Assembly: GCA_965656495.1 (NCBI GenBank)
Contig: CBFHKU010000003.1
Span: forward strand, 32,001 to 96,000
Reading direction: 5' to 3'
Length of the DNA stretch: 64,000 nucleotides
From: Coraliomargaritaceae bacterium
GTDB taxonomy: Bacteria; Verrucomicrobiota; Verrucomicrobiia; Opitutales; Coraliomargaritaceae
Notes under the pieces: generated by a model
The model's input: the letters and a program-made list of their open reading frames with translations, nothing else
Databases searched by the model: none
Told to the model about the DNA's origin: nothing
Position numbers and translations under genes: made by a program
Shown: one piece after another, positions 12,874-42,774 of the stretch
How the letters are laid out: each line of letters starts with the position of its first letter
Position numbering within the stretch: position 1 is the first letter of the stretch

Positions 12874-13268
12874 GATTTATTGCTTGGTTGAATTACCTAG
12901 TTATAAAAGCATCTAAATTTACAAAAAGAGAATATGCAACACTTAAATGGGCTTAATTTCGTATAAAATTAATTTAAAATAGACTTAAATAGGCGTATAA
13001 ACCTTTGTTTAAATTGATACGGCAGGATTGCTTGGGTTGCCTGAAGCTTGAGGGGTGCATCGGAGTAAGGATGCGAATTAAAGCCAACAGGATTGCTTCA
13101 GTATGGCGTAGTGACTTGGTGTGCCACTGCAGGCGCTTTAAGGTAAACTTTATATGTTCATCTATCGATTCGTTTCTTTCCTTGGCATCACCTTTTTTGA
13201 ACCTAAGTTTTACCAATGTCCTGAACCTGCTTTGTTACTCATGTCTTGAACCTGTACCATGTTTGATG

Positions 13269-13358
13269 GGATTAGGGGTAAGATTAAGAGTAAGAGTAAG
13301 ATTAAGATTAAGAGTAAGATTAAGATTAAGATTAGGAGTAGGAGTAGGAGTAGGAGTA
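13269..13358. repeat. hexanucleotide tandem repeat, 15 units of approximately RGAKTA, followed by a G run
   Basis: ggatta ggggta agatta agagta ... ggagta x4, read directly. Confidence 0.9.
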
Positions 13359-13655
13359 GGGGGGGTGTGTTTGTTGCTCTGTCTGAACAAATCTATTCTG
13401 GCTTCTCGAACCTGCTAAAGCCGCTTTGCCTTTCTTTGCGGGCTATTTTCTTATTTGTACGATCCGCGTGATTCGCAGTTAATCACTCTTTGTGCTGCAC
13501 TGAGACCAGCCTTGCTGGCGACCGCCAATAGGTACTTATTTTCGGCTCTGCCGGATTGCCCAACACAGAGTGGTTTTAGCACAGCGGGGAAACCTAATAG
13601 GAAGGGAATCGCCGAAATACCCTTGTCCTCGGGTTTGAATCATGAAAGCGGGTAC

Positions 13656-13686
13656 AAAAAAACCCTGAAATCAAGTTTCAGGGTTT
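13656..13686 (-). terminator. rho-independent terminator of the Ala-rich gene
   Basis: A7-CCCTGAAA-tcaag-TTTCAGGG; gives a U-tract on the minus strand. Confidence 0.75.
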
Positions 13687-13732
13687 CTAGCTTGTTGTTG
13701 GTAAAAAATTAGCGGTCCAACAGTCTTAGCTG

Positions 13733-14722
13733 TTAAGCGCCAGTTGAGGGACTTGCTTCAACTTCGCTATCATCTTCTGGGTCCGAGATGACCGGATCCG
13801 GAACATCGCTATCTCCGCTGTCGCTGTCATTAGAAGCGGCATCATCGGCAGCCGCTTGTGCTTCTCCAGCAAGGTCATTGGCGGCTTCGCCAGTGATGCC
13901 AGCCTCATTCGCACCAGCCAAGGTACCTTGTTGGACGCCGGAACTCACCGCCTCGTTTAAAACAACATTGATGCCGTTATCATCAGAAATACTATCAGCA
14001 CCTGTTTCAACACTGGCAGCAACTGCAGTCACGATCGTGGCGGGATCCGCGTTAACAGCAACTGCGGTTGCCACTGCCGCTTGAGATGCACCTACTGCTG
14101 CTGCCTGTACGGCGTCAACAACCACAGATAGGGGTTTGTCGTCTTCGACCAATGCCGATAGGGCAACCATGGAGCCTTCGGTGGCGGCTTTAGCGGCCTC
14201 TGCAACCGATACGGTAGAAACTGTGGAATCTTGCTGAGCTGCACTCGCCGCAAGCATTGCGCCGGAAGTCGCACCCTTGGAAGAAGCTGCTACGGCAGCG
14301 GAGAGATTTGCTTCCGATACGGCTGGTGCTTTTACAACTGCAGTGACTGCGCCCTGCGCAGTTGCCTCAACTGCGGTAGTAGTTTCTTCCGGGCTCAATT
14401 TAGCCTCGGTGGCGAGTTCAAAGACAGCTCGTGTCATGGAGGCTACCGCAGTTTCAATAGTGGATTGAATCGTCACACTTTCGCTAGACATTAATACCAA
14501 TTGCAGAATTTGTTGGGTTACGTTGCTGACACTTGCCTCATCTTCAACGTTGATACCTGCAGTCAAAAGTAATTTTTTTGCTGCTTCGACATCGCCATTA
14601 GAGACTTGCGAAACAAGCACCGGATCCATGTCTTCCGCGACGATGGACTGTGCCGGCACAACAGCGATGACCAAAGCTAGAGTAAATTTAATTAGAGAGC
14701 TTTTCAGTTTGAAATTTTTCAT
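13733..14722 (-). CDS. secreted Ala/Val/Ser-rich acidic hypothetical protein
   Basis: N-terminal signal peptide; repeated amphipathic helices (A..GA); acidic Pro-rich tail. Confidence 0.7.
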   Translation of the reverse strand: MKNFKLKSSLIKFTLALVIAVVPAQSIVAEDMDPVLVSQVSNGDVEAAKKLLLTAGINVEDEASVSNVTQQILQLVLMSSESVTIQSTIETAVASMTRAVFELATEAKLSPEETTTAVEATAQGAVTAVVKAPAVSEANLSAAVAASSKGATSGAMLAASAAQQDSTVSTVSVAEAAKAATEGSMVALSALVEDDKPLSVVVDAVQAAAVGASQAAVATAVAVNADPATIVTAVAASVETGADSISDDNGINVVLNEAVSSGVQQGTLAGANEAGITGEAANDLAGEAQAAADDAASNDSDSGDSDVPDPVISDPEDDSEVEASPSTGA

Positions 14723-20666: not shown

Positions 20667-20894
20667 ATGAAAATGAACCAAAAAGGGCAGGTGACGATAC
20701 CGCAAGACCTGCGCAAGCGTTTTGGAATGACTCGTGATACCGAAATCGTTTTTGAGGCGGTTCCTGAAGGTTTGCTACTGCGCACTGAAAATAAGGGGCG
20801 GGCGGGTCGCCTCCGTCGGGGCATTGCGAAAGCGCGGGGATGCGCCGATGCCGAATTGACAACCGAAGCGGTGATGGAATTGACCCGAGGCTAA
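20667..20894 (+). CDS. AbrB/MazE-type antitoxin (VapB)
   Basis: MNQKGQVTIPQDLRKRFGM swapped-hairpin motif; adjacent to a PIN gene. Confidence 0.88.
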   Translation: MKMNQKGQVTIPQDLRKRFGMTRDTEIVFEAVPEGLLLRTENKGRAGRLRRGIAKARGCADAELTTEAVMELTRG

Positions 20895-21293
20895 ATGGTT
20901 CTGGTAGATTCCAATGTTCTGATTGATCTTTTTACGAATGACCCCAACTGGGCCGAATGGTCAGAAAACGCCTTACTTGAAGCCGCTCGGTATGATGCGC
21001 TTGCCATCAATCCGGTCATCTACGCAGAAATTTCTATTGCTTTTTCAGATGCCGCCAAACTGGATGCCGTTCTCGAACCTCTGGAAATCATGCGACTGCA
21101 GTTGCCCTACCGTGCTGCCTTTCTTGCAGGTAAAGCCTTTCTAAAATACCGTCGGCAAGGCGGCGACAGATCCTCGCCGCTCCCTGATTTCTTTATTGGA
21201 GCCCACGCTGTAAGCGAAAAAATGAAACTCATTACACGGGACACAAAACGCTTCCGGAGTTATTTCCCAGGCATTAATTGCGTAACACCTTAA
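20895..21293 (+). CDS. VapC PIN-domain toxin
   Basis: LVDSNVLID, YAE, LPDFFIGAHA, LITRD. Confidence 0.9.
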   Translation: MVLVDSNVLIDLFTNDPNWAEWSENALLEAARYDALAINPVIYAEISIAFSDAAKLDAVLEPLEIMRLQLPYRAAFLAGKAFLKYRRQGGDRSSPLPDFFIGAHAVSEKMKLITRDTKRFRSYFPGINCVTP

Positions 21294-22312: not shown

Positions 22313-22507
22313 GTGAAGAACGCTGATTCAAAAAATTGGGACAGTGTCACCTGGGCGGGCGCGGAAAAGAGCCGCCGGATACAGGATGCCCGTTTGAGCT
22401 TCCGCCAAAAACTCGAGTGGAACGCGCAGGCTCTGGAACTCACAAAACGCTTCGAGGCAGGCTGCTCTAAGGCACCGAGCACCCGCCCGCGTCCAATTAA
22501 AAATTAA
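22313..22507 (+). CDS. small hypothetical protein, possibly an orphan TA partner
   Basis: 64 aa ORF filling the galE-rmlB gap; W..A...R..Q...LS..QKLEW pattern. Confidence 0.4.
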   Translation: MKNADSKNWDSVTWAGAEKSRRIQDARLSFRQKLEWNAQALELTKRFEAGCSKAPSTRPRPIKN

Positions 22508-22510
22508 GCC

Positions 22511-23716
22511 ATGAAAATTCTCGTAACCGGAGGAGCCGGATTTATCGGTTCCAATCTCGTACGACTGCTCATCAAAGAGAAGGGCGCTACCGTCATAAAT
22601 CTCGACAAGCTCACTTACGCGGGCAACCCCGAATCCCTTGCCGATCTCGCGGACGACCCCAACTACCACTTCGAATACGGAGACCTCGCCGCCCCGATTG
22701 ATACGCCTGAGACACCACCTTCACACCGTGATCAAAAATCGCTCGTCGAGATTTTTGATCACTACCAACCCGACGCGGTCATGCACCTCGCTGCCGAGAG
22801 CCATGTGGACCGTTCCATCGATGGCCCCGGCGAGTTCATTCAAACCAACATCGTCGGCACCTACAATCTGCTTCAAGCGAGTCTGCAATATTGGCGTGGC
22901 CTGCCGGAGCCAGAAAGTGAAAAAGTGAGAACGTGTGAAGGTGGAAATGTTCAATCAGAGTCCGGTGACCTTCCCACTGTCAAACCTTCCCACCTTCCCA
23001 CCCAGAAATCCTTCCGATTTCTGCACGTTTCGACTGATGAAGTCTACGGCTCCCTTGCGCCCGATGCTCTTGGGTTTTCTGAAACGACTCCTTACGATCC
23101 GCACTCCCCGTACTCTGCCTCCAAAGCCGCTTCCGACCATCTCGCCCGTGCCTGGGCCGACACCTACGGTCTGCCGGTGCTTGTCACGAACTGCTCCAAC
23201 AACTACGGACCCTACCAATTTCCCGAAAAACTCATCCCGGTGGTCATCCTCAAATGCCTGCGCGGGGAACCCATTCCCGTTTACGGAAAGGGCGAAAATA
23301 TCCGCGATTGGCTCTACGTGGGGGATCATGCCGAAGCCCTCTACGCCGTCCTAACCAAGGGTCGGGTAGGAGAGACCTACAACATCGGCGGCAACAACGA
23401 ACAGACGAACCTCAATTTGGTTAAATTAATTTGTAAGATTTTGGATCAACAGCATCCACCTTCCCACCTTCCCACTTTCACACCTTCAAACCCTGTCAGC
23501 TATGAAAGCCTAATCGGCTTTGTAGCTGACAGACCCGGCCACGACCTGCGCTACGCCATCGACGCCCGCAAGATCCGCGACGAACTCGGCTGGGAACCCA
23601 AAGAAGATTTCGAATCCGGTTTTCGCAAAACCGTACACTGGTATTTGGAAAACCAAGAGTGGTGGCAGCATATCCTTTCCGGCGACTACCAACTGGAGCG
23701 CCTGGGTAAAACTTGA
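22511..23716 (+). CDS. rfbB: dTDP-glucose 4,6-dehydratase with repeat-derived in-frame insertions
   Basis: [49 protein letters not shown]; 401 aa, longer than usual. Confidence 0.93.
22913..23002. repeat. inverted pair of 8-mer tandem arrays inside rfbB
   Basis: gaaagtga aaaagtga gaacgtgt gaaggtgg ... ccttccca ctgtcaaa ccttccca ccttccca. Confidence 0.8.
23456..23495. repeat. 8-mer tandem array inside rfbB
   Basis: ccaccttc ccaccttc ccactttc acaccttc aaaccctg. Confidence 0.8.
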
Positions 23717-23734
23717 AACATTACAAATAACATC

Positions 23735-25089
23735 ATGGAAAAATAGCAATAATTGGACTGGGATACGTCGGGTTACCTCTGGGTCTTCACTTTGCGGATT
23801 CGGGTGTTTCGGTATTGGGGCTGGATGTCGATGCGGCTAAAGTAGATGCCATCAATTCCGGCAAAAGCTACATCAAGCATATTGATGCGGCAGAGATTGC
23901 GGCACAACAAGCCAGTGGAAAACTGGAGGCTTCGACGGATTTTTCGCGGGTGAGCGAAGTCGATGCGGTGCTCATCTGCGTTCCCACTCCGTTGAACAAA
24001 TACCGCGAACCGGACATTTCCTACGTGCTGAAATCAGGCGAGGCCATTGCGCCTTACCTTGCGCAGCAAGGTGTGCAAAGTTCGAGTTCAGAGTTCGAGT
24101 CAGAAACTAGCCACTCGAACACTGCCAAAGGCAGTCCACTCGAACAGTCGCGTCCAAAACTCATCGTTTTGGAGTCGACGACGTACCCCGGCACGACCGA
24201 CACGGATTTACGCAAAGTGCTCGAAGCGGGTTCGGGCCTGAAGGCGGGAGAGGATTTCTACTTGGCCTTTTCTCCGGAACGCGAGGATCCGGGTCGCAAG
24301 GACCACTCTGTGAAAACCATCCCGAAGGTCATGGGCGGTTACACCGAAGCCTGTCTAAAGCGTTGTATAGAACTCTACTCCAAGGCGCTTGATAAAGTGC
24401 ATCCGGTCAGTTCTTGCCGTTTGGCGGAAGCAACAAAGTTAACTGAAAATATCTTCCGCTCTGTTAACATTGCATTGGTCAATGAACTGAAGGTGGTCTT
24501 TCAAAAGATGGATATCGACGTGTGGGATGTCGTCGACGCTGCGGCAACCAAGCCCTTTGGCTACATGCCCTTTTATCCCGGCCCCGGCCTCGGCGGACAC
24601 TGCATTCCGATTGATCCCTTTTACATGACCTGGAAGGCCCGCGAATACGAGCAACACACCCGTTTCATTGAACTGGCAGGCGAGATCAATACCGCCATGC
24701 CGGACTATGTGATTTCCCGCGTTGCCGACGCGCTCAATGACGACGGCAAGGCGATCAAGGGCTCCAAAATTCTCCTCCTCGGCATGGCTTACAAACCGAA
24801 CGTCGATGACGACCGCGAGTCCCCCAGTTACGTCCTTATGAAGAAACTTGAGGACAAGGGCGCCATTGTTAGCTACAACGACCCGCACGTCCCCGAGATC
24901 AAGCTCACCCGCGAACATCCGGAATTTGCGGGTAGGAAGTCCGTTGCGATCACTGACGACTTCGATTGTATCCTAGTCGCCACCCATCATGCCGAATATG
25001 GTGAATATGACTTTTCAAACTTCACTGCCCCAATCGTGGATACGCGAAATTGTGTAGGCAAACGTCCTGCTAAATATTATAAAGCGTGA
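23735..25089 (+). CDS. nucleotide-sugar dehydrogenase (WbpA/TviB/WecC family) with a frameshift right after the start codon
   Basis: ATG GAA AAA TAG is out of frame with KIAIIGLGYVGLPL; ICVPTP, ESTTYPGTT, FSPEREDPG, GPGLGGHCIPIDP follow. Confidence 0.88.
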
Positions 25090-25268: not shown

Positions 25269-25505
25269 ATGCATACAGTTGTTTCCAGCAAAGGTCAGAT
25301 CGTGATTCCAGCCAAGATGCGCAAGGCCCTGAATTTGCATTCAGGGCAGCGGATCAATCTCGACCGTCGCGGTCGATCAATCATTTTGTCCACGGAGGAG
25401 CCTAAATTCGATAGATGGCTGGAGGAACGTCGCGGGAAGGGCGTGTTAAAGGAACCGTTAAAGGTTGACCGCACGGCAAGTATGCCTGAGGCAAAAAAAC
25501 TTTAG
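25269..25505 (+). CDS. AbrB/MazE-type antitoxin
   Basis: VSSKGQIVIPAKMRKALNL motif. Confidence 0.88.
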   Translation: MHTVVSSKGQIVIPAKMRKALNLHSGQRINLDRRGRSIILSTEEPKFDRWLEERRGKGVLKEPLKVDRTASMPEAKKL

Positions 25506-25508
25506 ACA

Positions 25509-25898
25509 GTGGGAACCTATCTCTTAGACTCTGATGTCGCGATCGCTTTGATTAATGGGCATGAGGAATGGATCGATCTTTTAATCGGTCAGGCGAACGC
25601 AATTTCCAGCGTGACTGCATATGAATTGGCAGTAGGCATAGAAAAATGCCGCTCCAAAAAGACAATCAGAGAGACCCGTGATTTCCTGTCTGCGATTGAA
25701 GTGATCGATTTCGATGTCGAAGCGGCATTTGAGAGTGCGCGTGTTCGCGCCGAACTCGAAAGTGTCGGGCAGGGCATCGGACCTTACGATACCTTAATTG
25801 CTGGGCACTGTCGCCTGCTTGGACGTTCCTTGGTGACCAATAATCTGCGTGAATTTGAACGGGTGTCGAACCTGGAGGTGGTCTCCATTCGGAAATAA
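25509..25898 (+). CDS. VapC PIN-domain toxin
   Basis: YLLDSD, SSVTAYEL, IGPYDTLIAGH, LVTNNLREFERV. Confidence 0.92.
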   Translation: MGTYLLDSDVAIALINGHEEWIDLLIGQANAISSVTAYELAVGIEKCRSKKTIRETRDFLSAIEVIDFDVEAAFESARVRAELESVGQGIGPYDTLIAGHCRLLGRSLVTNNLREFERVSNLEVVSIRK

Positions 25899-26161: not shown

Positions 26162-26491
26162 GGTTCAGATATCCTCCTCCTCGGCATGGCATACAAACCG
26201 AACGTCGATGACGACCGCGAGTCCCCCAGTTACGTGCTCATGAAAAAACTTGAGCAACGGGGTGCAATCGTGGATTACAACGATCCTTATGTGCCTGAGA
26301 TCAAAACAAGTCGAGAGCACGCAGATCTTGCGGGTCGCCGCTCTGTTGAGATAAATGACGACTATGACTGTATATTGCTGGCCACCCACCATGACGAATA
26401 TAGGGAGTTCGACTTTTCGGACTTTGCCAGCCCTGTGGTGGATACGCGAAATTGTATTACTAAACGCCCGATGAAATTTTTTCGAGCATAG
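26162..26491 (+). pseudogene. duplicated 3' end (alternative C-terminus) of the upstream nucleotide-sugar dehydrogenase
   Basis: ILLLGMAYKPNVDDDRESPSYVLMKKLE is identical to the upstream gene, then the copies diverge but stay colinear to the stop. Confidence 0.9.
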
Positions 26492-26522: not shown

Positions 26523-27575
26523 ATGGCTAAATATCTCGTAACCGGCGTTGCCGGATTTATCGCATCACGCACGGCCCAGTTTCTTTTGGAACAAGGGCAC
26601 GAAGTTGTCGGCGTCGACAATCTGAATGATTATTATGACGTCAGGTTGAAATACTACCGTCTTTTCGAACTCGCGAAGGCATCGGGAGGGGCAGCTGGCA
26701 TTGTTGCAGATTTGGATAAGTCGTTTCGTGAATCGACACAGCCGTCTGGCGTATGGGAGGCGGGCAACTTTCGCTTCTTGCAACTCGATATCGAAGATAA
26801 GGGGGCGGTTCTCGACTTGTTCAAAGCGCATCAGTTTGATGCAGTCTTAAATCTAGCTGCCCGTGCTGGTGTTCGCTACAGTATGGAAAATCCCGATGTC
26901 TATATGACGACAAATGCCATGGGCACTCTGCACCTCATGGACGGAATGAAAGCAACGGGGGTGAAGAAACTTGTATTGGCATCCACTTCTTCCCTCTACG
27001 CGGGCCAGCCGATGCCCTTCACAGAGACCTTGCCGGTGAATTCGCCCATATCGCCTTATGCCGCTTCAAAGAAAGCGGCTGAGATGATGGCTTACAGCTA
27101 CAGTTACCTCTACGATCTGGATGTGTCGGTGGTGCGCTATTTTACGGTTTTTGGTCCCTGTGGGCGCCCGGATATGTGTATCTTCCGCTTCACGAATTGG
27201 ATCGATGCCGGTGTGCCAATCGAACTGTTTGGCGATGGCAGTCAAAGTCGTGATTTCACCTATGTCGATGATATCGCTCGTGGCACAATTGCAGCACTCA
27301 AGCCCGTGGGGTATGAAGTCTTTAATCTCGGCGGTGGCAATAACCCGATCTCACTAAAACAGATCATAGAATGGATCGAAGAGGGGCTGGGCAAAAAAGC
27401 CAACTACGACCATAAACCCTTTCATAAAGCGGACATAAAGGAGACTTGGGCCGATATTTCAAAAGCGGAGCGGATGCTCGGCTGGAAGCCCCAGGTTGGT
27501 GTAAAGGAAGGGCTGGATCAAACAACAGAGTGGTATTTTGCAAATAGAGAGTGGCTGCAGGGTGTGTCTCTGTAG
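26523..27575 (+). CDS. NAD-dependent epimerase, UDP-glucuronate 4-epimerase-like (second paralog)
   Basis: TGVAGFI, DNLNDYYD, LAARAGVRYS, SPYAASKK, GRPDM. Confidence 0.85.
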   Translation: MAKYLVTGVAGFIASRTAQFLLEQGHEVVGVDNLNDYYDVRLKYYRLFELAKASGGAAGIVADLDKSFRESTQPSGVWEAGNFRFLQLDIEDKGAVLDLFKAHQFDAVLNLAARAGVRYSMENPDVYMTTNAMGTLHLMDGMKATGVKKLVLASTSSLYAGQPMPFTETLPVNSPISPYAASKKAAEMMAYSYSYLYDLDVSVVRYFTVFGPCGRPDMCIFRFTNWIDAGVPIELFGDGSQSRDFTYVDDIARGTIAALKPVGYEVFNLGGGNNPISLKQIIEWIEEGLGKKANYDHKPFHKADIKETWADISKAERMLGWKPQVGVKEGLDQTTEWYFANREWLQGVSL

Positions 27576-27608
27576 CTTTATTCTGAATAATTCCCAATAA
27601 TATTACCC

Positions 27609-27866
27609 ATGAAAGGAATCATACTTGCAGGCGGTGCTGGCACCCGACTACACCCGATCACACTGGCTGTTTCTAAACAGTTGATGCCGATCTATGACAA
27701 GCCGATGATCTATTATCCGCTGTCCGTGCTTATGCTGGCAGGGATTAACGAAATCCTGATTATCACGACACCGGAAGATCAGCCGGCTTTCCAGCGCTTG
27801 CTGGGCGATGGCTCCGAGCTGGAGCGGTTGGGGACGAGCGAAGCTCGTGATGGTGAACAATACTGA
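27609..27866 (+). pseudogene. 5' fragment of rmlA (71 codons) joined to an rmlB-like C-terminal tail
   Basis: 68/71 aa identical to the 30132 gene, then LERLGT (rfbB ends LERLGKT). Confidence 0.9.
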
Positions 27867-27880
27867 ATGGGTGATACTGG

Positions 27881-28237
27881 ATGGGTGACGGACTTAAAGA
27901 TTTTGAGGAGATGGAGGTGTGGCAAGATGCTCGGCAGTTGGCAGTTGGTGTCTACTCCGATTTCTCACAAGTAAAAGACTTCTCCTTCTGCGATCAGATT
28001 AAGCGGGCGGTCATATCCATATCTAATAATATTGCCGAGGGGTGCGGCCGGACTACCAAAACTGAATTTGCTCGATTTCTAGATATTGCGAAAGGTTCAA
28101 GTGCAGAGGTTCGGAGTATGTATAGGGTTGCCGAAGCACTTGAATTTATTTCTACATGCACAGCACAAAGGCGCTGTGAATCTTGCGTGAGTATTTCTAA
28201 ACAGTTAAGTGGCTTTGCAAAGCACCTTCGAAAGTAG
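27881..28237 (+). CDS. four-helix-bundle protein (23S rRNA IVP-like family)
   Basis: FEEMEVWQDA, DQIKRAVISISNNIAEG, FARFLDIAKGSSAEV. Confidence 0.9.
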   Translation: MGDGLKDFEEMEVWQDARQLAVGVYSDFSQVKDFSFCDQIKRAVISISNNIAEGCGRTTKTEFARFLDIAKGSSAEVRSMYRVAEALEFISTCTAQRRCESCVSISKQLSGFAKHLRK

Positions 28238-28290
28238 GTTTCCAATCGAGCATTGAGCATCAAATATTAACTATCAAAAATCTCTGATTT

Positions 28291-28332
28291 TTTCCATAAA
28301 AGGAATCATACTCGCCGATGGCGCCGGCTCCC
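28291..28332 (+). repeat. degenerate copy of the rmlA start (ATG changed to ATA)
   Basis: ataaaaggaatcatactcgccgatggcgccggctccc vs atgaaaggaatcatactagccggtggtgccggctccc. Confidence 0.85.
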
Positions 28333-28412
28333 TTCAGCATTCCAGACTTGGGCACCTAATGAGTGTTCGTAAAAGAAATTGATTCAGAGCCGTAATCTGC
28401 TAACTTTACCAA

Positions 28413-28628
28413 ATGACCGCTCTTGAAAAAGAAATACTCAGTTTACCTAAACTGCAGAAAATCAGCATTATGGAAAAAATTTGGGTCGATCTTCTAAAAG
28501 AAGAGGAGGCGATTGAACTGCCTGAATGGCATCTTGAGGAACTCGCAAAAACAGAAAAAAGCATTCAAAAGGGCAGGGAACATTTTCAGGATTGGGAAGT
28601 AGCCAAAAAAGCGATTCGTGAGGCATGA
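28413..28628 (+). CDS. addiction-module antitoxin component
   Basis: LPKLQKISIMEKIWVDL...PEWHLEEL...DWEVAKK pattern; overlaps the RelE start (ATGA). Confidence 0.8.
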   Translation: MTALEKEILSLPKLQKISIMEKIWVDLLKEEEAIELPEWHLEELAKTEKSIQKGREHFQDWEVAKKAIREA

Positions 28629-28915
28629 ATCTGAGGATTCTAACTGCAGCCTCCCGAGATTTAGTGAAAGGAAAGAAGCTCTATGAGCGTCAATAAGTAG
28701 GCTTGGGAGGATATTTCTTAGACACCCTCTATTCTGACATTGACTCTTTGATTTTGTATGCGGGCATCCATCGAAAAATACGCGGTTATCACTGCATGTT
28801 TTCGAGGCGCTTTCCTTATGCGGTTTATTACAAAACAGAATCGAATGAGATTCGAGTGTATCGAGTGATGGACTGCAGACAAGATCCTCGAAAAACATTG
28901 AAAGCACTGAAGTAG
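28625..28915 (+). pseudogene. RelE/ParE-family toxin with an in-frame premature stop
   Basis: MNLRILTAASRDLVKGKKLYERQ*VGLGGYFLD...RRFPYAVYY..DCRQDP; TAA at 28694-28696. Confidence 0.82.
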
Positions 28916-28917
28916 TG

Positions 28918-28959
28918 CGAACTAAAAATTCAAAGAATTTTTCCATGAAAGAAAGCATA
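28918..28959 (+). repeat. degenerate copy of the rmlA leader and start
   Basis: cgaactaaaaattcaaagaatttttccatgaaagaaagcata vs cgaactaaaatttcggagaaattttctatgaaaggaatcata (30105-30146). Confidence 0.75.
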
Positions 28960-28977
28960 AACCTCATCTGCGTGCAT

Positions 28978-29026
28978 AGCGATTATGATTTAGTGCTACT
29001 TTTGCCGGATGACTGCGATCAATGGC
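28978..29026 (+). pseudogene. 49-nt remnant of the MNT gene
   Basis: 47/49 nt identical to 29372-29420. Confidence 0.85.
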
Positions 29027-29058
29027 TTGAGAAAGTCGCTACGCGACAGTTCTAGTTT

Positions 29059-29121
29059 ATAGTTCGAGAGCTGGAACTCCAAACTGAACACTCAAACTAA
29101 AAATTAAGGAATTTTTCCATG
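29059..29121 (+). repeat. second copy of the GTTCGAG/CTCGAAC element plus rmlA leader ending in ATG
   Basis: atagttcgagagctggaactccaaactgaacactcaaactaaa vs 30002-30044; then aatttttccATG. Confidence 0.75.
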
Positions 29122-29263
29122 GCGGCCATACGCTTCCCCCCATCCAGCATCGCCGTAAGGCCCATCGCTTCTGACTCCTTTACGCCTTTATGAGTCTATT
29201 AACTTACCTTTAGACCGCAAAGTTACGTTGACCTACCTTTCAAGTCTGTTGAGATTTCATACT

Positions 29264-29572
29264 ATGAAAAACGTGTCGATTCGCTCTCTCGCTAAAACAG
29301 CCGGGTTGGCGTCGGGGGCTGATGCAGTTTATTTATTTGGTTCTCGAGCAACCGGACGCAACCGCTCGGACAGCGATTATGATTTAGCGCTACTTTTGCC
29401 GGATGAGTGCGATCAATGGCAAGCGACTCGCGATGCACAGCGTTCACTCTGGCCGCGCCCTGTGCCAATCGACCTGGTTCCAATTACCAAGAAAAGTTGG
29501 GAAGATGGAAGCAACGCCTTCATCAGAGAAGTACGCAAAACCGGTAAACTTCTTTTTTCAAGAGATGGATAA
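29264..29572 (+). CDS. minimal nucleotidyltransferase (MNT) antitoxin
   Basis: VYLFGSRATG...SDYDLAL...PIDLV motif. Confidence 0.88.
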   Translation: MKNVSIRSLAKTAGLASGADAVYLFGSRATGRNRSDSDYDLALLLPDECDQWQATRDAQRSLWPRPVPIDLVPITKKSWEDGSNAFIREVRKTGKLLFSRDG

Positions 29573-29948
29573 TCTCGAAACTGGCAAATGGTTTGCTCAA
29601 GCTGAAGATGACTTCGCTTATGGCTGCGACGGAGTCGCTTCGCATCCGCGTGGAGCCACATGGAATTTTCACCAAGCCGCAGAAAAAGCGATTAAGGCGA
29701 TCCTTATTTCTCAGGAGAAAGATTTTCCACGGACACATGATCTGCCGCGACTATTGACGATACTTCAGTTGGAACCATCGGCCAGCGACACGGTGGCTCA
29801 AGCGGCATTCATTCTTTCCAGTTTTCTGCCGCTCACTCGTTATCCGGGCGATTGGCCCGAAATCAATGAAGCTAGGGCCAAAGAGGCCAAAGAAGCTTCG
29901 AAGATTATTCTGAGTTGGGCACGCAAACACTTTCAGCAGAAATTGTAA
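29565..29948 (+). CDS. HEPN-domain protein
   Basis: WFAQAEDD, HQAAEKAIKA, PRTHDL, TRYPG; overlaps the MNT stop. Confidence 0.88.
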   Translation: MDNLETGKWFAQAEDDFAYGCDGVASHPRGATWNFHQAAEKAIKAILISQEKDFPRTHDLPRLLTILQLEPSASDTVAQAAFILSSFLPLTRYPGDWPEINEARAKEAKEASKIILSWARKHFQQKL

Positions 29949-29976
29949 GATTTACGAAGCGATCTCTTTTACTTAC

Positions 29977-30113
29977 TAGTTCGAGTTATTAGTTCGAGTT
30001 GATAGTTTAAGAGCTCGAACTCCAAACTGAACACTCGAACTAAAGCAATGCGACCACTCGAACACCAGCAACGCTGTAAAAGTGTTCTACTATAACTAAA
30101 AACTCGAACTAAA
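29977..30113. repeat. cluster of AGTTCGAG / CTCGAACT inverted micro-repeats upstream of rmlA
   Basis: tagttcgagtt x2, then ctcgaac at four positions. Confidence 0.8.
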
Positions 30114-30131
30114 ATTTCGGAGAAATTTTCT

Positions 30132-30992
30132 ATGAAAGGAATCATACTAGCCGGTGGTGCCGGCTCCCGTTTACATCCCATCACGCTGGCAGTCTCCAAG
30201 CAGCTCATGCCAGTTTACGATAAGCCGATGATCTACTATCCGCTATCGGTCTTGATGCTGGCAGGGATCAACGAGATCCTGATCATTACGACTCCCGAGG
30301 ATCAGCCGGCTTTTAAGCGCCTGCTGGGGGATGGCTCCGAGCTCGGCTGCCGTTTTCAATACGCGATCCAGGAGGTGCCTAACGGTTTGGCACAGGCCTT
30401 TGTGATCGGTAAAGACTTTATCGGGGATGATAAGGTCGCCTTGGTCCTCGGGGATAATATTTTTTATGGTTCTGGTTTTGGGGAGCTGGTTCGCCGCCAC
30501 ACCGATCCCGATGGCGCGGTTATCTTTGCCGCCAGCGTCCACGATCCAGAGCGCTACGGCGTGGTGGAGTTCGACGAGCAGGAGAACGCTATCTCCATCG
30601 AGGAAAAGCCTGCGCAGCCAAAATCCAATTACGCCGTTCCGGGGCTCTACTTTTACGATAACGATGTGGTCGAAATCGCTGAAACCATCGAGCCCTCCGC
30701 TCGGGGCGAATACGAGATTACCACCGTCAATCAGGTTTACCTGGAGCGGAAAAAGCTCAAAGTTGGCGTATTCAACCGAGGCATCGCATGGCTGGATACT
30801 GGCACTTTCGCTTCACTCAACGAGGCTTCGACCTTCGTCCGCGTCATCGAACAACGGCAGGACACCAAGATCGGCTGTATCGAGGAAGTTGCCTTTTATT
30901 CAAAGTTCATTGATTGTGAACAATTGTTAAAATTGGCTCAGAAATTAGAGAAGTCCGGCTACGGTGATTATCTCTTAAGAATAGCTAAGTGA
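30132..30992 (+). CDS. rfbA: glucose-1-phosphate thymidylyltransferase
   Basis: [47 protein letters not shown]. Confidence 0.95.
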
Positions 30993-34112: not shown

Positions 34113-35090
34113 ATGTTAGAATTTGTTAAGTATCGTGCCGACTTGAAGGAAGAGTGGGACCGTTTTGTCGAGAGTTCTAAGAATTCCAGTTTCTTGCTAA
34201 AACGCGATTATATGGAGTATCATGCTGATCGTTTTGAAGATGCGTCGGTTATGGTTTATGATGGGGGCTCATTGGTCATGGTCCTTCCCGCCAATCAGAG
34301 AAGTGAAACAATTGTTAGTTCACATGATGGCTTAACTTATGGAGGATTTGTTCTGGATCGTGAGATTAAGCTGCCTGTTGTTTTGCCCGCAATCGCAGGA
34401 GTCCTAGATTTTTATAATCGTAACGGGGTCGCGAGTTTGGAGGTTAAAGTAATTCCTCGCTTCTTCAATACGGTGTCCTCGGATGAAGTAGACTATGCAA
34501 TGTTTGTGTGTGGCGCGGAACTGTATCGGAGAGATACAGCACTCGTTGTCGACCAAGCTGCACGTATTCAGTATAGTGGAAATTACCGTCGAGAGGCGAA
34601 TCGTGCGCGTAAAGAGGGCTTAACCGTGCAAGAGGAAGCCGAGTTGGAGCCATTTTGGAATGAAGTGCTTCGGCCGAATTTGAGTTTGCGATTTGGGGTC
34701 GAACCAGTGCATACGCTGGAAGAGATGGAGACCTTGAAATCGCGTTTTCCTGAAAATATCAAATGCTATTCGGTTCGTGATCGTGATGGTGTCATTCAGT
34801 GTGGTTCCGTCTTCTATTTATCTAAAGAGATTGCGCACTCCCAATACATATCGTCTTCAGATGCTGGGCGACGTAACGGGGCACTCAACCTCCTCTTTAT
34901 TGATTTGATGGATGAAGTACTTTGTGGGCATCGTTTCTTCGATTATGGTACTGCTAATGATAATCAGGGCAGAAAGCTTAATCTCGGTTTACTCGCGTGG
35001 AAAGAACGCATGGGAGGTCGCACTGTGGTTCATGACTTTTATCGTGTTGATACCAGTAAGGCAGACTTAGTTGGATCTGTAATACAATGA
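34113..35090 (+). CDS. GNAT/FemAB-like acyltransferase
   Basis: WDRFV..SKN, DYMEYHADRFED, SHDGLTYGG, FDYGT, GLLAWKERMG. Confidence 0.75.
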   Translation: MLEFVKYRADLKEEWDRFVESSKNSSFLLKRDYMEYHADRFEDASVMVYDGGSLVMVLPANQRSETIVSSHDGLTYGGFVLDREIKLPVVLPAIAGVLDFYNRNGVASLEVKVIPRFFNTVSSDEVDYAMFVCGAELYRRDTALVVDQAARIQYSGNYRREANRARKEGLTVQEEAELEPFWNEVLRPNLSLRFGVEPVHTLEEMETLKSRFPENIKCYSVRDRDGVIQCGSVFYLSKEIAHSQYISSSDAGRRNGALNLLFIDLMDEVLCGHRFFDYGTANDNQGRKLNLGLLAWKERMGGRTVVHDFYRVDTSKADLVGSVIQ

Positions 35091-40447: not shown

Positions 40448-41443
40448 ATGCTAATGAAAGAAATCGTATCAGATTTTAAGTGTTTTATCCGCAGGCTGTC
40501 CTCTCGCCGGACTGGGACTCATCCTGATGGCGACATTATGATTTTCTCAACAGCACGCAGCGGGTCGACCTGGGTGAAGGAAGTGATCGCCTCTCAGCAG
40601 AATATCAAATTTGTGAGTGAGCCACTACTGATGGAGAGCTTAACTCGCAGGCAGTTGGGGGTCGATCCTTCATGGGGATTAACGATTCCTAGCCGAGGGC
40701 GTGAGCAGATACTAAAGAATTATTTTCAGCGTCAATTTTCCGGAAGTTGTGGTTATGGTAGCCCTTCCTTTAAGTCGGAGTTCTATCGAAAACGCTATGA
40801 TCGTGTGGTATTGAAGCTTCTCCGTTGTCAGGATATGATGAACTGGTGTGCGGACCAGTTCGGAGTTAAGGTGGTTTACTTACTGAGGCACCCTGTGCCA
40901 GTCGCTTTGTCACGAAAAGAATACAAGCGGCTGCCCATGTTTTTGGAGAGTGATGAATTTCGTGAGCGTTATCTAAGTGATGCGCAACACGCTTTCGCCC
41001 TAGATGTCGTCAGTGATGGGACTGCTCTCGAACATAAAATCTTGGACTGGTGCTTGCAGAATTTGGCCCCGCTTAAACATCTGGATAGCAGCCGTTGGCT
41101 TACGCTTTACTATGAGGATATTGTGATGACTCCGGAGCAGCAACTGGAGCAGCTTAGTGCCTATCTGAATTTGGAAGATGTCGATTCGGCTTTGGCGCGG
41201 ATCAATCAGGCTTCTTCCACGACTTACAAGTCTGACGCTGAGACCCAGGCGGTCTTGTCGGGTGAGGAAGATCTGGGCAAGCGGCGTTCGTTTTTAGTCA
41301 ATAAGTGGTTGTCGCGCGTCAATGAAACAGAGCAGGCGCAGGTGCAGGCGATTTTTGATCAGTTTGAGATTGATGTATACCGCACAGATGCCGCGATGCC
41401 AGTCGTACGTATGAACTCGGAGGCGATTGCATGCGGTCACTGA
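40448..41443 (+). CDS. sulfotransferase family protein
   Basis: STARSGSTW, LLRHP, YEDIV..P motifs. Confidence 0.8.
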   Translation: MLMKEIVSDFKCFIRRLSSRRTGTHPDGDIMIFSTARSGSTWVKEVIASQQNIKFVSEPLLMESLTRRQLGVDPSWGLTIPSRGREQILKNYFQRQFSGSCGYGSPSFKSEFYRKRYDRVVLKLLRCQDMMNWCADQFGVKVVYLLRHPVPVALSRKEYKRLPMFLESDEFRERYLSDAQHAFALDVVSDGTALEHKILDWCLQNLAPLKHLDSSRWLTLYYEDIVMTPEQQLEQLSAYLNLEDVDSALARINQASSTTYKSDAETQAVLSGEEDLGKRRSFLVNKWLSRVNETEQAQVQAIFDQFEIDVYRTDAAMPVVRMNSEAIACGH

Positions 41444-42774
41444 TACGTAGTCTACATGGGCGTCGTACTTATATACGGCGAATTGACTGTGCATACAAGC
41501 GTCTGAAAGCAGTCGAAATGCTGGGCTCTAAAGAAGTGGAGGGGTTGGCGGAAGAGACACGTAGCGCATTCCTTCAATTCTGTATCGAGCACGTCCCTTT
41601 TTATCGAGATGCGGCTAATCGTGAGGGGGTCCATAATTTAAATGACTGGTTGAAACTGCCGATCCTAACAAAGGATTTGATACGTGCGCACTCGAAAGAA
41701 TTGCGTTCAGAGGGGCATGCGTCGCTGTGGGTTCGCCAAAATACATCCGGAGGTTCCACCGGTGAGCCAGTCACTTTTTTACAAGACGATACGTATCAAG
41801 TGGAAATGTGTGCCATGAAGCGAGTCTATGACTCTTGGACCGGTTTCCAATACGGCCAGCCAAAGGTTATCTTATGGGGGTCGGAGAGAGATCTCTTGGA
41901 AGGGCGTGAACACTGGAGGACGCATTTCGCGCGATGGATGCAAAACGAACATTGGATCAATGCCTTTAAAATGACTGAAGCCTCAATGGCGGCAACCGTG
42001 GATTTGATTAATAAGCGCAAGCCGGTACAAATCTTGGCTTACGTCGAGGCCATTTCTACACTGTGTAAATTCATTAAGAAGAATCGATTGAAAGTGTATG
42101 CGCCTCATGGTATCATGACTTCTGCTGGAACTCTTTACCCGGAGATCCGAAAGGAAATCTCCGAGACCTTTCAGGCACCTGTGTACAATCGCTACGGTTC
42201 ACGTGAAGTTGGGGATATGGGCAGTGAATGTTCGGATGACAGTGGCCTTTTGGTACACCCGATGATTCACCATCTTGAGATCGTCCGGGATGATGGTAGT
42301 CCTTGCGAAGCTGGAGAGCCAGGACGTATTCTAGTCAGTTGTATGACCAATCGAACGATGCCGCTGCTCCGTTACGATGTGGGGGATGTCGGCGTGTTGA
42401 AGGCAGAGACGCATGACGATGTGCCAGCTTTCCAGAGCTTGGAGTCAGTGAAAGGTCGGGTCACGGATAATTTTATCAATTTAGAGGGTGCACGTATTCA
42501 TGGTGAATTCTTTACCCACTTACTCTATCACTGTGACTGGGTGCATAAGTTCCGTTTCCATCAACGTGCCGATACCAGTATCGATATTTATGTTGTCCTG
42601 GCTCCTCAAATAAAGCTCATTGATTTAAAAAAAGAATGTGAGTCAATTGATCAGGAAATACGTAAAGTCATGGGAGAGGGGTGTTTGCTTCGTTGGTCCT
42701 CTGTCAGAGAACTGGAGTCCCATGCAAACGGTAAGTATCGTTATGTAATTTCAGACACCCAGCAGTCATTTTAA
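41431..42774 (+). CDS. phenylacetate-CoA-ligase-like (CapK-type) adenylate-forming enzyme
   Basis: TSGGSTGEP, YGSRE, MPLLRYDVGD, GR..D, GKYRY. Confidence 0.85.
   Translation: MRSLIRSLHGRRTYIRRIDCAYKRLKAVEMLGSKEVEGLAEETRSAFLQFCIEHVPFYRDAANREGVHNLNDWLKLPILTKDLIRAHSKELRSEGHASLWVRQNTSGGSTGEPVTFLQDDTYQVEMCAMKRVYDSWTGFQYGQPKVILWGSERDLLEGREHWRTHFARWMQNEHWINAFKMTEASMAATVDLINKRKPVQILAYVEAISTLCKFIKKNRLKVYAPHGIMTSAGTLYPEIRKEISETFQAPVYNRYGSREVGDMGSECSDDSGLLVHPMIHHLEIVRDDGSPCEAGEPGRILVSCMTNRTMPLLRYDVGDVGVLKAETHDDVPAFQSLESVKGRVTDNFINLEGARIHGEFFTHLLYHCDWVHKFRFHQRADTSIDIYVVLAPQIKLIDLKKECESIDQEIRKVMGEGCLLRWSSVRELESHANGKYRYVISDTQQSF

Follow-up and report, generated by a model that had tools for sequence, protein, structure and literature searches.

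Repeated rmlA starts and small cargo genes stacked in a surface-polysaccharide locus of a Coraliomargaritaceae bacterium

Layout of the stack ahead of rmlA

The DNA analysed here is a 64,000-nt stretch, hereafter the window, from a Coraliomargaritaceae bacterium (GCA_965656495.1, contig CBFHKU010000003.1; G000:C3:32001-96000) whose genome comprises 2.06 Mb in 31 contigs and is present in marine runs. Within a long surface-polysaccharide cluster, the intact sugar gene rmlA is preceded by a stack of partial copies of its own start, between which lie small cargo genes. The cluster runs from rmlB (22511) through ugd (23815), an AbrB-PIN pair, a stub repeating the ugd end and an epimerase gene (26523) to the stack and the intact rmlA (30132). 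The stack and the gene that it precedes consist of the following features.

27609-27820, plus strand: copy 1 of the rmlA start; 71 codons, 176 of 213 alignment columns identical, 83 % nucleotide and 96 % amino acid identity, no leader likeness
27819-27833, plus strand: junction 1; LERLG, the last conserved rmlB codons, in frame with copy 1; the chimeric open reading frame (ORF) ends at 27866
27881-28237, plus strand: unit 1, four-helix-bundle gene (PF05635, TIGR02436)
28276-28344, plus strand: hairpin leader and copy 2, with an ATA start at 28296; aligned over 28290-28344 (47 of 56 columns), 37-49 nt of coding likeness
28349-28920, plus strand: unit 2, antitoxin gene PF09720 (28413-28628) and ParE/RelE-like ORF (28625-28915) with an in-frame stop at 28694-28696
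28918-28959, plus strand: hairpin leader and copy 3, with ATG at 28945; 35 of 42 columns, about 15 nt coding
28978-29101, plus strand: unit 3, an internally deleted unit 4 copy; 49 nt of the MNT gene (47 of 49 identical) and 54 nt of the repeat block (48 of 54)
29087-29121, plus strand: hairpin leader and ATG, copy 4; 28 of 36 columns with one gap, the weakest copy
29264-29948, plus strand: unit 4, MNT (Polbeta) and HEPN gene pair; a 79 % identical pair occurs in G054
29975-30131, no strand assigned: inverted short-repeat array and hairpin leader; fold of -26.9 kcal/mol versus -10.8 +/- 2.8 kcal/mol in shuffles
30132-30992, plus strand: intact rmlA, matching TIGR01207 above the cut-off

Each copy was locally aligned to the intact rmlA. 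Copies 1-4 scored 68, 63, 49 and 29, whereas 1000 block-shuffles of the interval reached 27 at the 99th percentile and 34 at most, which places copies 1-3 far above chance and copy 4 just above it; the copies reported in a first-pass annotation, made from the letters of the stretch, are therefore real and lie at the positions given there. A whole-genome ungapped scan with the first 40 nt of rmlA found copy 2 (34 of 40) and copy 1 (33 of 40) ahead of the next site (25), while copy 4 by itself reached the top background level of the genome (22 of 30). The hairpin-leader pattern, derived from the copies of the stack itself, occurred at nine genome sites, four of which were copies 2-5 (copy 5 being the intact start), and at four sites in 399 kb of relatives' loci, three of them rmlA starts. 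The rarity of this pattern and, in relatives, its occurrence mostly at rmlA starts favour an rmlA-type leader in copy 4. Of all the copies, however, this one is the least certain, since a leader-plus-ATGAAA like that before rmlA also precedes ugd or an epimerase gene in G080 and G073. Likeness to the rmlA coding sequence ended after 212, 37-49, 15 and 3 nt in copies 1-4, respectively, and the junctions had no motif in common; trimming after insertion may be the source of these differing breakpoints.

Over 70 codons, copy 1 differed from the intact rmlA by 33 synonymous and five non-synonymous changes (pS 0.63, pN 0.03), and the distance between the two equalled that of either from other genera. 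This almost exclusively synonymous divergence indicates that copy 1 and the intact rmlA are alleles of two lineages and not a fresh local duplicate. To judge from the substitution pattern, both would have been working genes in separate lineages until copy 1 was cut.

At junction 1, the likeness to rmlA stops at 27820 and the reading frame runs on into LERLG, the conserved rmlB end of the family. With a matrix made from the rmlB tails of 18 relatives, a test picked after the motif had been seen but with the tested position fixed by the breakpoint, junction 1 was within the top 12 of 4,123,902 genome sites. The abutment of an rmlA start on an rmlB tail indicates that junction 1 joins pieces of the operons of two strains. 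An intact order of rmlB, four-helix-bundle gene and rmlA was present in G086 and G092, and G086 was collinear with 27892-28332, through the leader. Together with the rmlB tail, this order indicates that unit 1 is an ordinary piece of an operon allele and not a cassette with designed ends. A resident epimerase-rmlA arrangement may have lost its start to an incoming rmlB-tail-cargo-rmlA segment, or a resident rmlB-cargo-rmlA arrangement may have received rmlB-ugd-epimerase-rmlA-start from the left.

In unit 2, the ParE/RelE-like ORF is broken by the in-frame stop at codon 24 and has no family match of its own, and its two 91 %-identical relatives match ParE only below the cut-off. The whole unit, with a G+C content of 41 % versus 51 % for the window, was 91 % identical in G080 and G091, which belong to another genus and hold it in the gap between rmlB and an epimerase gene (G080) and behind an MNT pair (G091). 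Unit 3 contains an MNT piece, a repeat block and a leader in the order of unit 4, with copy 3 in frame with the MNT piece; what had been taken for an MNT remnant is thus a decayed unit 4 copy and not separate cargo. When 28900-29300 was compared with 301 genomes of the order, just 20-48 nt matches at chance level were found outside the genome itself. The counterpart of the unit 4 pair in G054 lies in a row of other toxin-antitoxin (TA) pairs.

The first-pass annotation had assigned one cargo to each interval. This stood for the four-helix bundle, the PF09720 antitoxin, the Polbeta MNT and the HEPN gene, but the ParE-like ORF is broken and the third interval holds the deleted copy of unit 4. 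It had also proposed that the modules carry the 5' end of rmlA with them. This is not supported, as the antitoxin-ParE-like pair in G080 and G091 (91 %) and the MNT-HEPN pair in G054 (79 %) are not accompanied by an rmlA start.

Assembly support, relatives and gene-end stubs elsewhere in the genome

Whether the stack is an assembly chimera of several strains was checked on contigs of three other studies, none of them marked as a possible source of the assembly. Contigs of X12 (26790-28887) and X6 (27693-29024) had no differences, an X5 contig (27820-30076) had 12 differences and a further X6 contig covered 29933-30197. Jointly these contigs bridge all junctions, although none spans the whole stack. 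The stretch or part of it was carried by 20 of the 24 listed runs, from six studies, and 17 runs contained at least half of the sampled words. A chimera would be in keeping with a draft genome of 31 contigs and with the co-occurrence of sister populations in the runs, but as single independent contigs cross the junctions with 0-12 differences, it is extremely improbable. In runs X5 and X18, from two studies, contigs start right at 27820, and the X5 stack contig had a depth of 55.6 versus 25.1 and 21.5 for its flanks, depth being no measure of copy number. The pattern is a weak hint, as if a second population had the stack with another upstream neighbour.

The slot ahead of rmlA was variable among relatives, and not the invariant interval that would have spoken against serial gain. 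One small cargo gene lay directly upstream in five of 24 rmlA starts of close relatives (a four-helix-bundle gene in four, DUF2283 in one), and none of the 24 had a stack. Relatives contained the same sugar genes in varied orders, a single small cargo gene or a TA pair frequently lay at one of the gene boundaries, and the four-helix-bundle gene occupied many different boundaries; the gene set after rmlB in G002 and G004 differed from that found here. No comparable stack was detected in 149 other rmlA loci (intact rmlA, at least 1.5 kb upstream), a test blind to copies as short as copy 4. These loci came from protein-based contig searches of genomes and metagenomes, were mostly from distant Bacteroidota and had own loci and short duplicates removed; the best 25 were viewed. 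The sole strong second start in this set was a second full-length rmlA (L056), and L151 had a 20-nt match. G023 (L034, 8119-8211) has a solitary rmlA start of 31 codons with unrelated sugar genes behind it; no intact rmlA was found in this genome, which is 95 % complete. In G012, a one-contig genome, a TA row of MNT-HepT, MNT and DUF433-DUF5615 lies directly upstream of rmlB (L031, 11871-14560), and no gene-end stub was detected there.

All long ORFs of the genome were scanned for nearby partial copies on the same strand. This gave 41 matches, comprising 13 3' ends downstream, 13 5' ends upstream, eight on the opposite side and seven internal. After removal by eye of paralogue pairs, shadow ORFs and simple repeats, by which all eight opposite-side matches were dropped, 14 genes with end-stubs remained: parA, trpA, an FAD oxidoreductase, an ACT protein, an NTP transferase, a sugar isomerase, ugd, leuB, rlmN, DUF445 and msrA; rmlA, alaS and lepA. 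The stubs were 32-285 nt long with identities of 76-100 %. The cargo at these sites included PIN pairs, Phd-zeta, an N6 methyltransferase, an RND pump, an ATPase, a lectin-domain gene and a PD-(D/E)XK gene, with no recombinase among it. Single-copy empty sites were found for parA in three of five congeners and for DUF445 in five of six. With 13 other genes of the genome bearing end-stubs and no comparable stack in the 149 rmlA loci, the view of rmlA as a special site is not supported.

At leuB-alaS (G000:C4:74800-75924, L252), three tandem units with copies 96-98 % identical surround a PD-(D/E)XK (GxxExxY-type) gene, and both junctions read as 27-codon in-frame mini-ORFs joining the alaS start to the leuB end. 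Start-to-tail junctions were thus in frame in two of two cases (rmlA to rmlB, alaS to leuB), for which the chance expectation is 1 in 9. At leuB-alaS, the alleles of the intact genes are those of the two closest congeners, from which the junction departs to either side, and the intact lepA start agrees with G003 at five of six differing sites. As the intact starts of alaS and lepA carry congener alleles, the stub is not always the old resident start. Stub scans of family loci (456 kb) and of the other rmlA loci (2.07 Mb) gave few matches, mostly paralogues or repeats, so that the in-frame idea gained no further cases.

Several of these sites have features of their own. Upstream of the lectin-domain gene, a 197-nt stretch (G000:C4:90777-90973, L253) repeats the lepA leader and start at 97 % identity. 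At DUF445 (G000:C8:9397-9446), the native C-terminal tail gave way to the insertion and now lies behind the stub, and at trpA (G000:C1:198048-198097) the two 50-nt copies are identical. Elsewhere in the genome, three diverged tandem copies of a unit of small genes, with common pieces, lie beside a pair that is HicA/HicB-like by eye (G000:C6:115267-117937), and an array with a period of about 61 nt is possibly CRISPR-like (G000:C4:135423-136481).

Recombinases and explanations for the stack

No recombinase or transposase family was matched among the window ORFs scanned (overlapping sets of 18, 20 and 40, with some small ORFs outside), in agreement with the first-pass annotation, and no integrase encoded by the element itself was found among them. 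Elsewhere the genome contains XerC/D-sized genes, two tyrosine recombinases of island type, a resolvase, one gene of the IS110 family and two of the Y1 transposase family; none of these lies in the window, DDE transposases being outside the genome-wide search. The integron integrase IntI was not found in a search of all but 8,000 bases of the genome, the best TIGR02249 score being 80.8 bits compared with a cut-off of 265, and the sub-threshold matches fell in XerC/D-sized and island integrase genes. Between 27570 and 30200 there were, by consensus, no attC-like R-box pairs such as mark an integron or CALIN, compared with 0.59 expected in shuffles, and Rfam gave one chance-level match and none better than E 0.4. 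None of the 15 listed of 22 contig joints linked two rmlA starts in register, assembled contigs only being considered. One X12 joint leads from 30063 back to 29099; it contains 15 extra letters, extends for no more than 32 nt to one side and has a depth double that of the host contigs, and it more likely belongs to a sister population than to a circle or tandem of unit 4.

The stack was probably formed by several rounds of recombinase-free, one-sided recombination at a hotspot in the polysaccharide locus. A fragment of a relative's operon would enter the cell, probably by natural transformation; the ComEC and DprA families are present in the genome, although presence alone does not show competence. 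Homologous recombination would then occur at one end of the fragment, in rmlA or an upstream sugar gene, and the other end would be joined without real homology or, by an equivalent route, the fragment would circularize and integrate by one crossover. The outcome would be the start of the downstream gene fused to the upstream sequence of another strain. Junction 1 is a direct example, with one-sided homology and a non-homologous join between divergent alleles (rmlA start to rmlB tail). Events that spare the whole rmlA would survive, so that stubs come to lie outside the working gene, a polarity that is seen genome-wide and that selection would explain. Later deletion would trim stubs and cargo, as may be seen in the deleted unit 4 copy and the broken ParE-like gene. 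The five starts would be accounted for by roughly three independent gains together with one duplication or re-gain. The earlier proposal of serial gain of small cargo without a local recombinase, with rmlA starts left behind as scars, is thereby retained.

Several observations weigh against this explanation. Transformation is suggested by two gene families only, and no recombination event has been observed. Three of the four breakpoints lie less than 50 nt from a start codon, which the model leaves unexplained; deletion trimming or steering by the hairpin leaders may be responsible. Homology-facilitated illegitimate recombination (HFIR) is a rare event in experiments, in which loss of resident DNA is more usual than its duplication (PMC3240628). 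Junction 1 may have about 2-4 nt of microhomology, depending on the donor codon, where an HFIR join would have 3-10 nt, and no donor gene for junctions 2-4 was found when the short junction pieces were compared with relatives' loci. This rmlA is present in none of six congeners, hence there is no empty site for the locus. In the tree of 213-nt rmlA starts, one of 22 inner branches was supported, and neither this tree nor sliding identity to relatives assigned the resident and donor sides. Finally, the alaS junction differs on both sides, so that an imported or circle-borne junction fits it better than simple displacement, and the alleles of alaS and lepA speak against the polarity assumed in the first-pass annotation as well as against recombination in its simple-displacement form.

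It is quite unlikely that the cassettes (four-helix bundle, GxxExxY and TA pairs), bounded by hairpins or short repeats, are themselves mobile, with structured ends that steer insertion near start codons and carry some host sequence along. A stable inverted short-repeat block adjoins the leader, similar repeat-plus-leader blocks precede ugd, an epimerase gene and rmlA in G080 and G073, breakpoints 2-4 cluster near the ATG, and the many gene boundaries occupied by the four-helix-bundle gene in relatives would suit such mobility. However, the repeat units vary by cassette, junction 1 includes a piece of a neighbouring chromosomal gene and the cargo of most of the 14 stub sites has no common enzyme, as illustrated by an RND efflux operon and the lectin-domain gene. 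Local tandem duplication in one lineage, by slippage or unequal crossing-over and followed by decay without foreign DNA, is probably true for unit 3 only, which is a deleted copy of unit 4 with 89-96 % identity and has a parallel in the tandem copies at leuB-alaS. It is largely refuted for units 1, 2 and 4, which hold unrelated genes, and the synonymous divergence of copy 1 and the identity of unit 2 to other genera, at a G+C content below that of the window, make it a very unlikely origin of the stack as a whole.

Integron-like or otherwise integrase-driven insertion at a fixed rmlA-start site, with the recombinase encoded elsewhere, would be in line with the recombinase genes outside the window and with the X12 joint, which a circle or tandem of unit 4 might give. 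The missing IntI, attC-like pairs and Rfam support, the four different breakpoints, where the single fixed crossover core of an integrase-driven island at a gene end (SXT/prfC type) would leave one, the cargo found elsewhere without rmlA starts and the lack of stacks in 149 rmlA loci make it highly improbable, and the description of the locus as an integron-like stack is not supported. A wider proposal, in which the DNA-uptake machinery of this lineage would act as a general, integrase-free system of cassette stacking at gene termini, with hairpin leaders and short inverted repeats steering the non-homologous joins towards start and stop codons and retention of in-frame mini-genes at junctions that preserve downstream translation, is unlikely. 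If it were true, TA and defence genes that move between genera would find a permanent landing pad in the polysaccharide operon.

Relation to known systems and further features of the operon

The stack works like known HFIR displacement arrays and insertion with long target duplication, and not like an integron. Integrons have IntI, attC sites and a fixed crossover; the stack resembles them as a single-orientation row of small, TA-rich genes but has none of these three properties. The study of HFIR in Escherichia coli conjugation discussed below is reportedly that of Amarir-Bouhram et al. (2011).

In Vibrio cholerae, stacked effector-immunity arrays of the type VI secretion system have been described, for which HFIR was proposed and alongside which Rhs C-terminal displacement is cited (Kirchberger et al. 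2017, PMC5361080, in the sections relevant here). They share with the rmlA stack the serial arrangement at a conserved anchor, the gene leftovers and the absence of an integrase, and their likeness to integrons was noted by the authors. There, the anchor lies upstream, 3' pieces are pushed downstream and the effector-immunity cargo is under competition, according to the same sections (PMC5361080), whereas in the rmlA stack it is the 5' starts of a housekeeping sugar gene that recur, with TA-type cargo and with a neighbouring operon gene's tail at one junction.

Insertion with long target duplication, as outlined in the parts of the paper concerned with it, produces variable duplications of >30 bp without a mobility gene, often over a start or stop codon and mostly in competent species (Furuta, Abe, Kobayashi 2010, PMC2853133, where Nobusato et al. 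2000 is cited on the subject). The parA and DUF445 sites, with their empty sites, match this description, and duplications of variable length >30 bp without a mobility gene are seen in copies 1-3 with leader and in the 13 other genes. The published system concerns restriction-modification genes and, in those same parts, near-identical repeats of 46-47 bp (PMC2853133), whereas the rmlA copies form a stack, have identities of about 78-89 % and in two cases contain <30 nt of coding sequence. No restriction-modification cargo was found in the stack, which holds TA-type genes and a four-helix bundle; an N6 methyltransferase lies at one other stub site.

In E. coli conjugation, HFIR has been described, as have partial duplications of 109-950 bp by circularization with a single crossover (PMC3240628). 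One-sided homology and partial duplication of the anchor gene are common to that system and the present one, the junction microhomology there being 0-10 nt; it differs, in the experiments concerned, in its laboratory plasmid substrate, very low frequency and organism (PMC3240628). Exchange of O-antigen clusters in Salmonella placed a junction inside an rml gene and left remnants at junctions, but whole clusters were swapped by homologous recombination and the relevant sections describe no TA stack or repeated starts (PMC3715488). Paired short-repeat arrays in Geobacter were interpreted as putative regulator sites, with no link to mobility drawn in the passages on them (PMC2700814). Stacked rmlA starts were not reported in the literature as far as was found, most subscription journals and supplements lying outside the search.

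The locus is a clear worked example of how TA and defence-type genes accumulate in surface-polysaccharide loci without an integrase, in which the rmlB tail preserves the gene order of another strain. It reveals no new enzyme or cassette system. Stacking to this depth at a single start codon is unusual, having been seen in none of the 149 other rmlA loci, and, with 14 stub sites in 2 Mb, the genome is well suited to measurements of one-sided recombination in the wild.

The sugar operon upstream of the stack comprises the following features.

22511-23716, plus strand: rmlB-like dTDP-glucose dehydratase gene, intact, with the C-terminal family motif YQLERLG
23815-25089, plus strand: UDP-sugar dehydrogenase gene (ugd), intact; its 3' end is repeated further downstream
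25269-25898, plus strand: AbrB/MazE antitoxin and PIN (VapC-like) pair, between ugd and the ugd stub
26171-26455, plus strand: ugd 3'-end stub (source 24769-25053), 76 % identical; a mirror-image scar behind the AbrB-PIN pair
26523-27575, plus strand: NAD-dependent epimerase gene, directly upstream of the stack; not rmlB

Elsewhere in the window, ORFs without a Pfam match lie at 444-2939, 13005-14722, 34113-35090 and 41431-42774, one of which encodes 831 aa. Short-repeat arrays run in frame inside rmlB and ugd (22700-22760, 23400-23535 and 24047-24170) and vary between sister populations by 24-nt insertions and skips of 97-134 nt; the ugd array has a fold of -32.9 versus -14.4 kcal/mol in shuffles. 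Other gene boundaries of the operon hold a second AbrB-VapC-like pair (20667-21293) and a 64-codon ORF without a family (22313-22507), which has an 89 % identical counterpart in G006.

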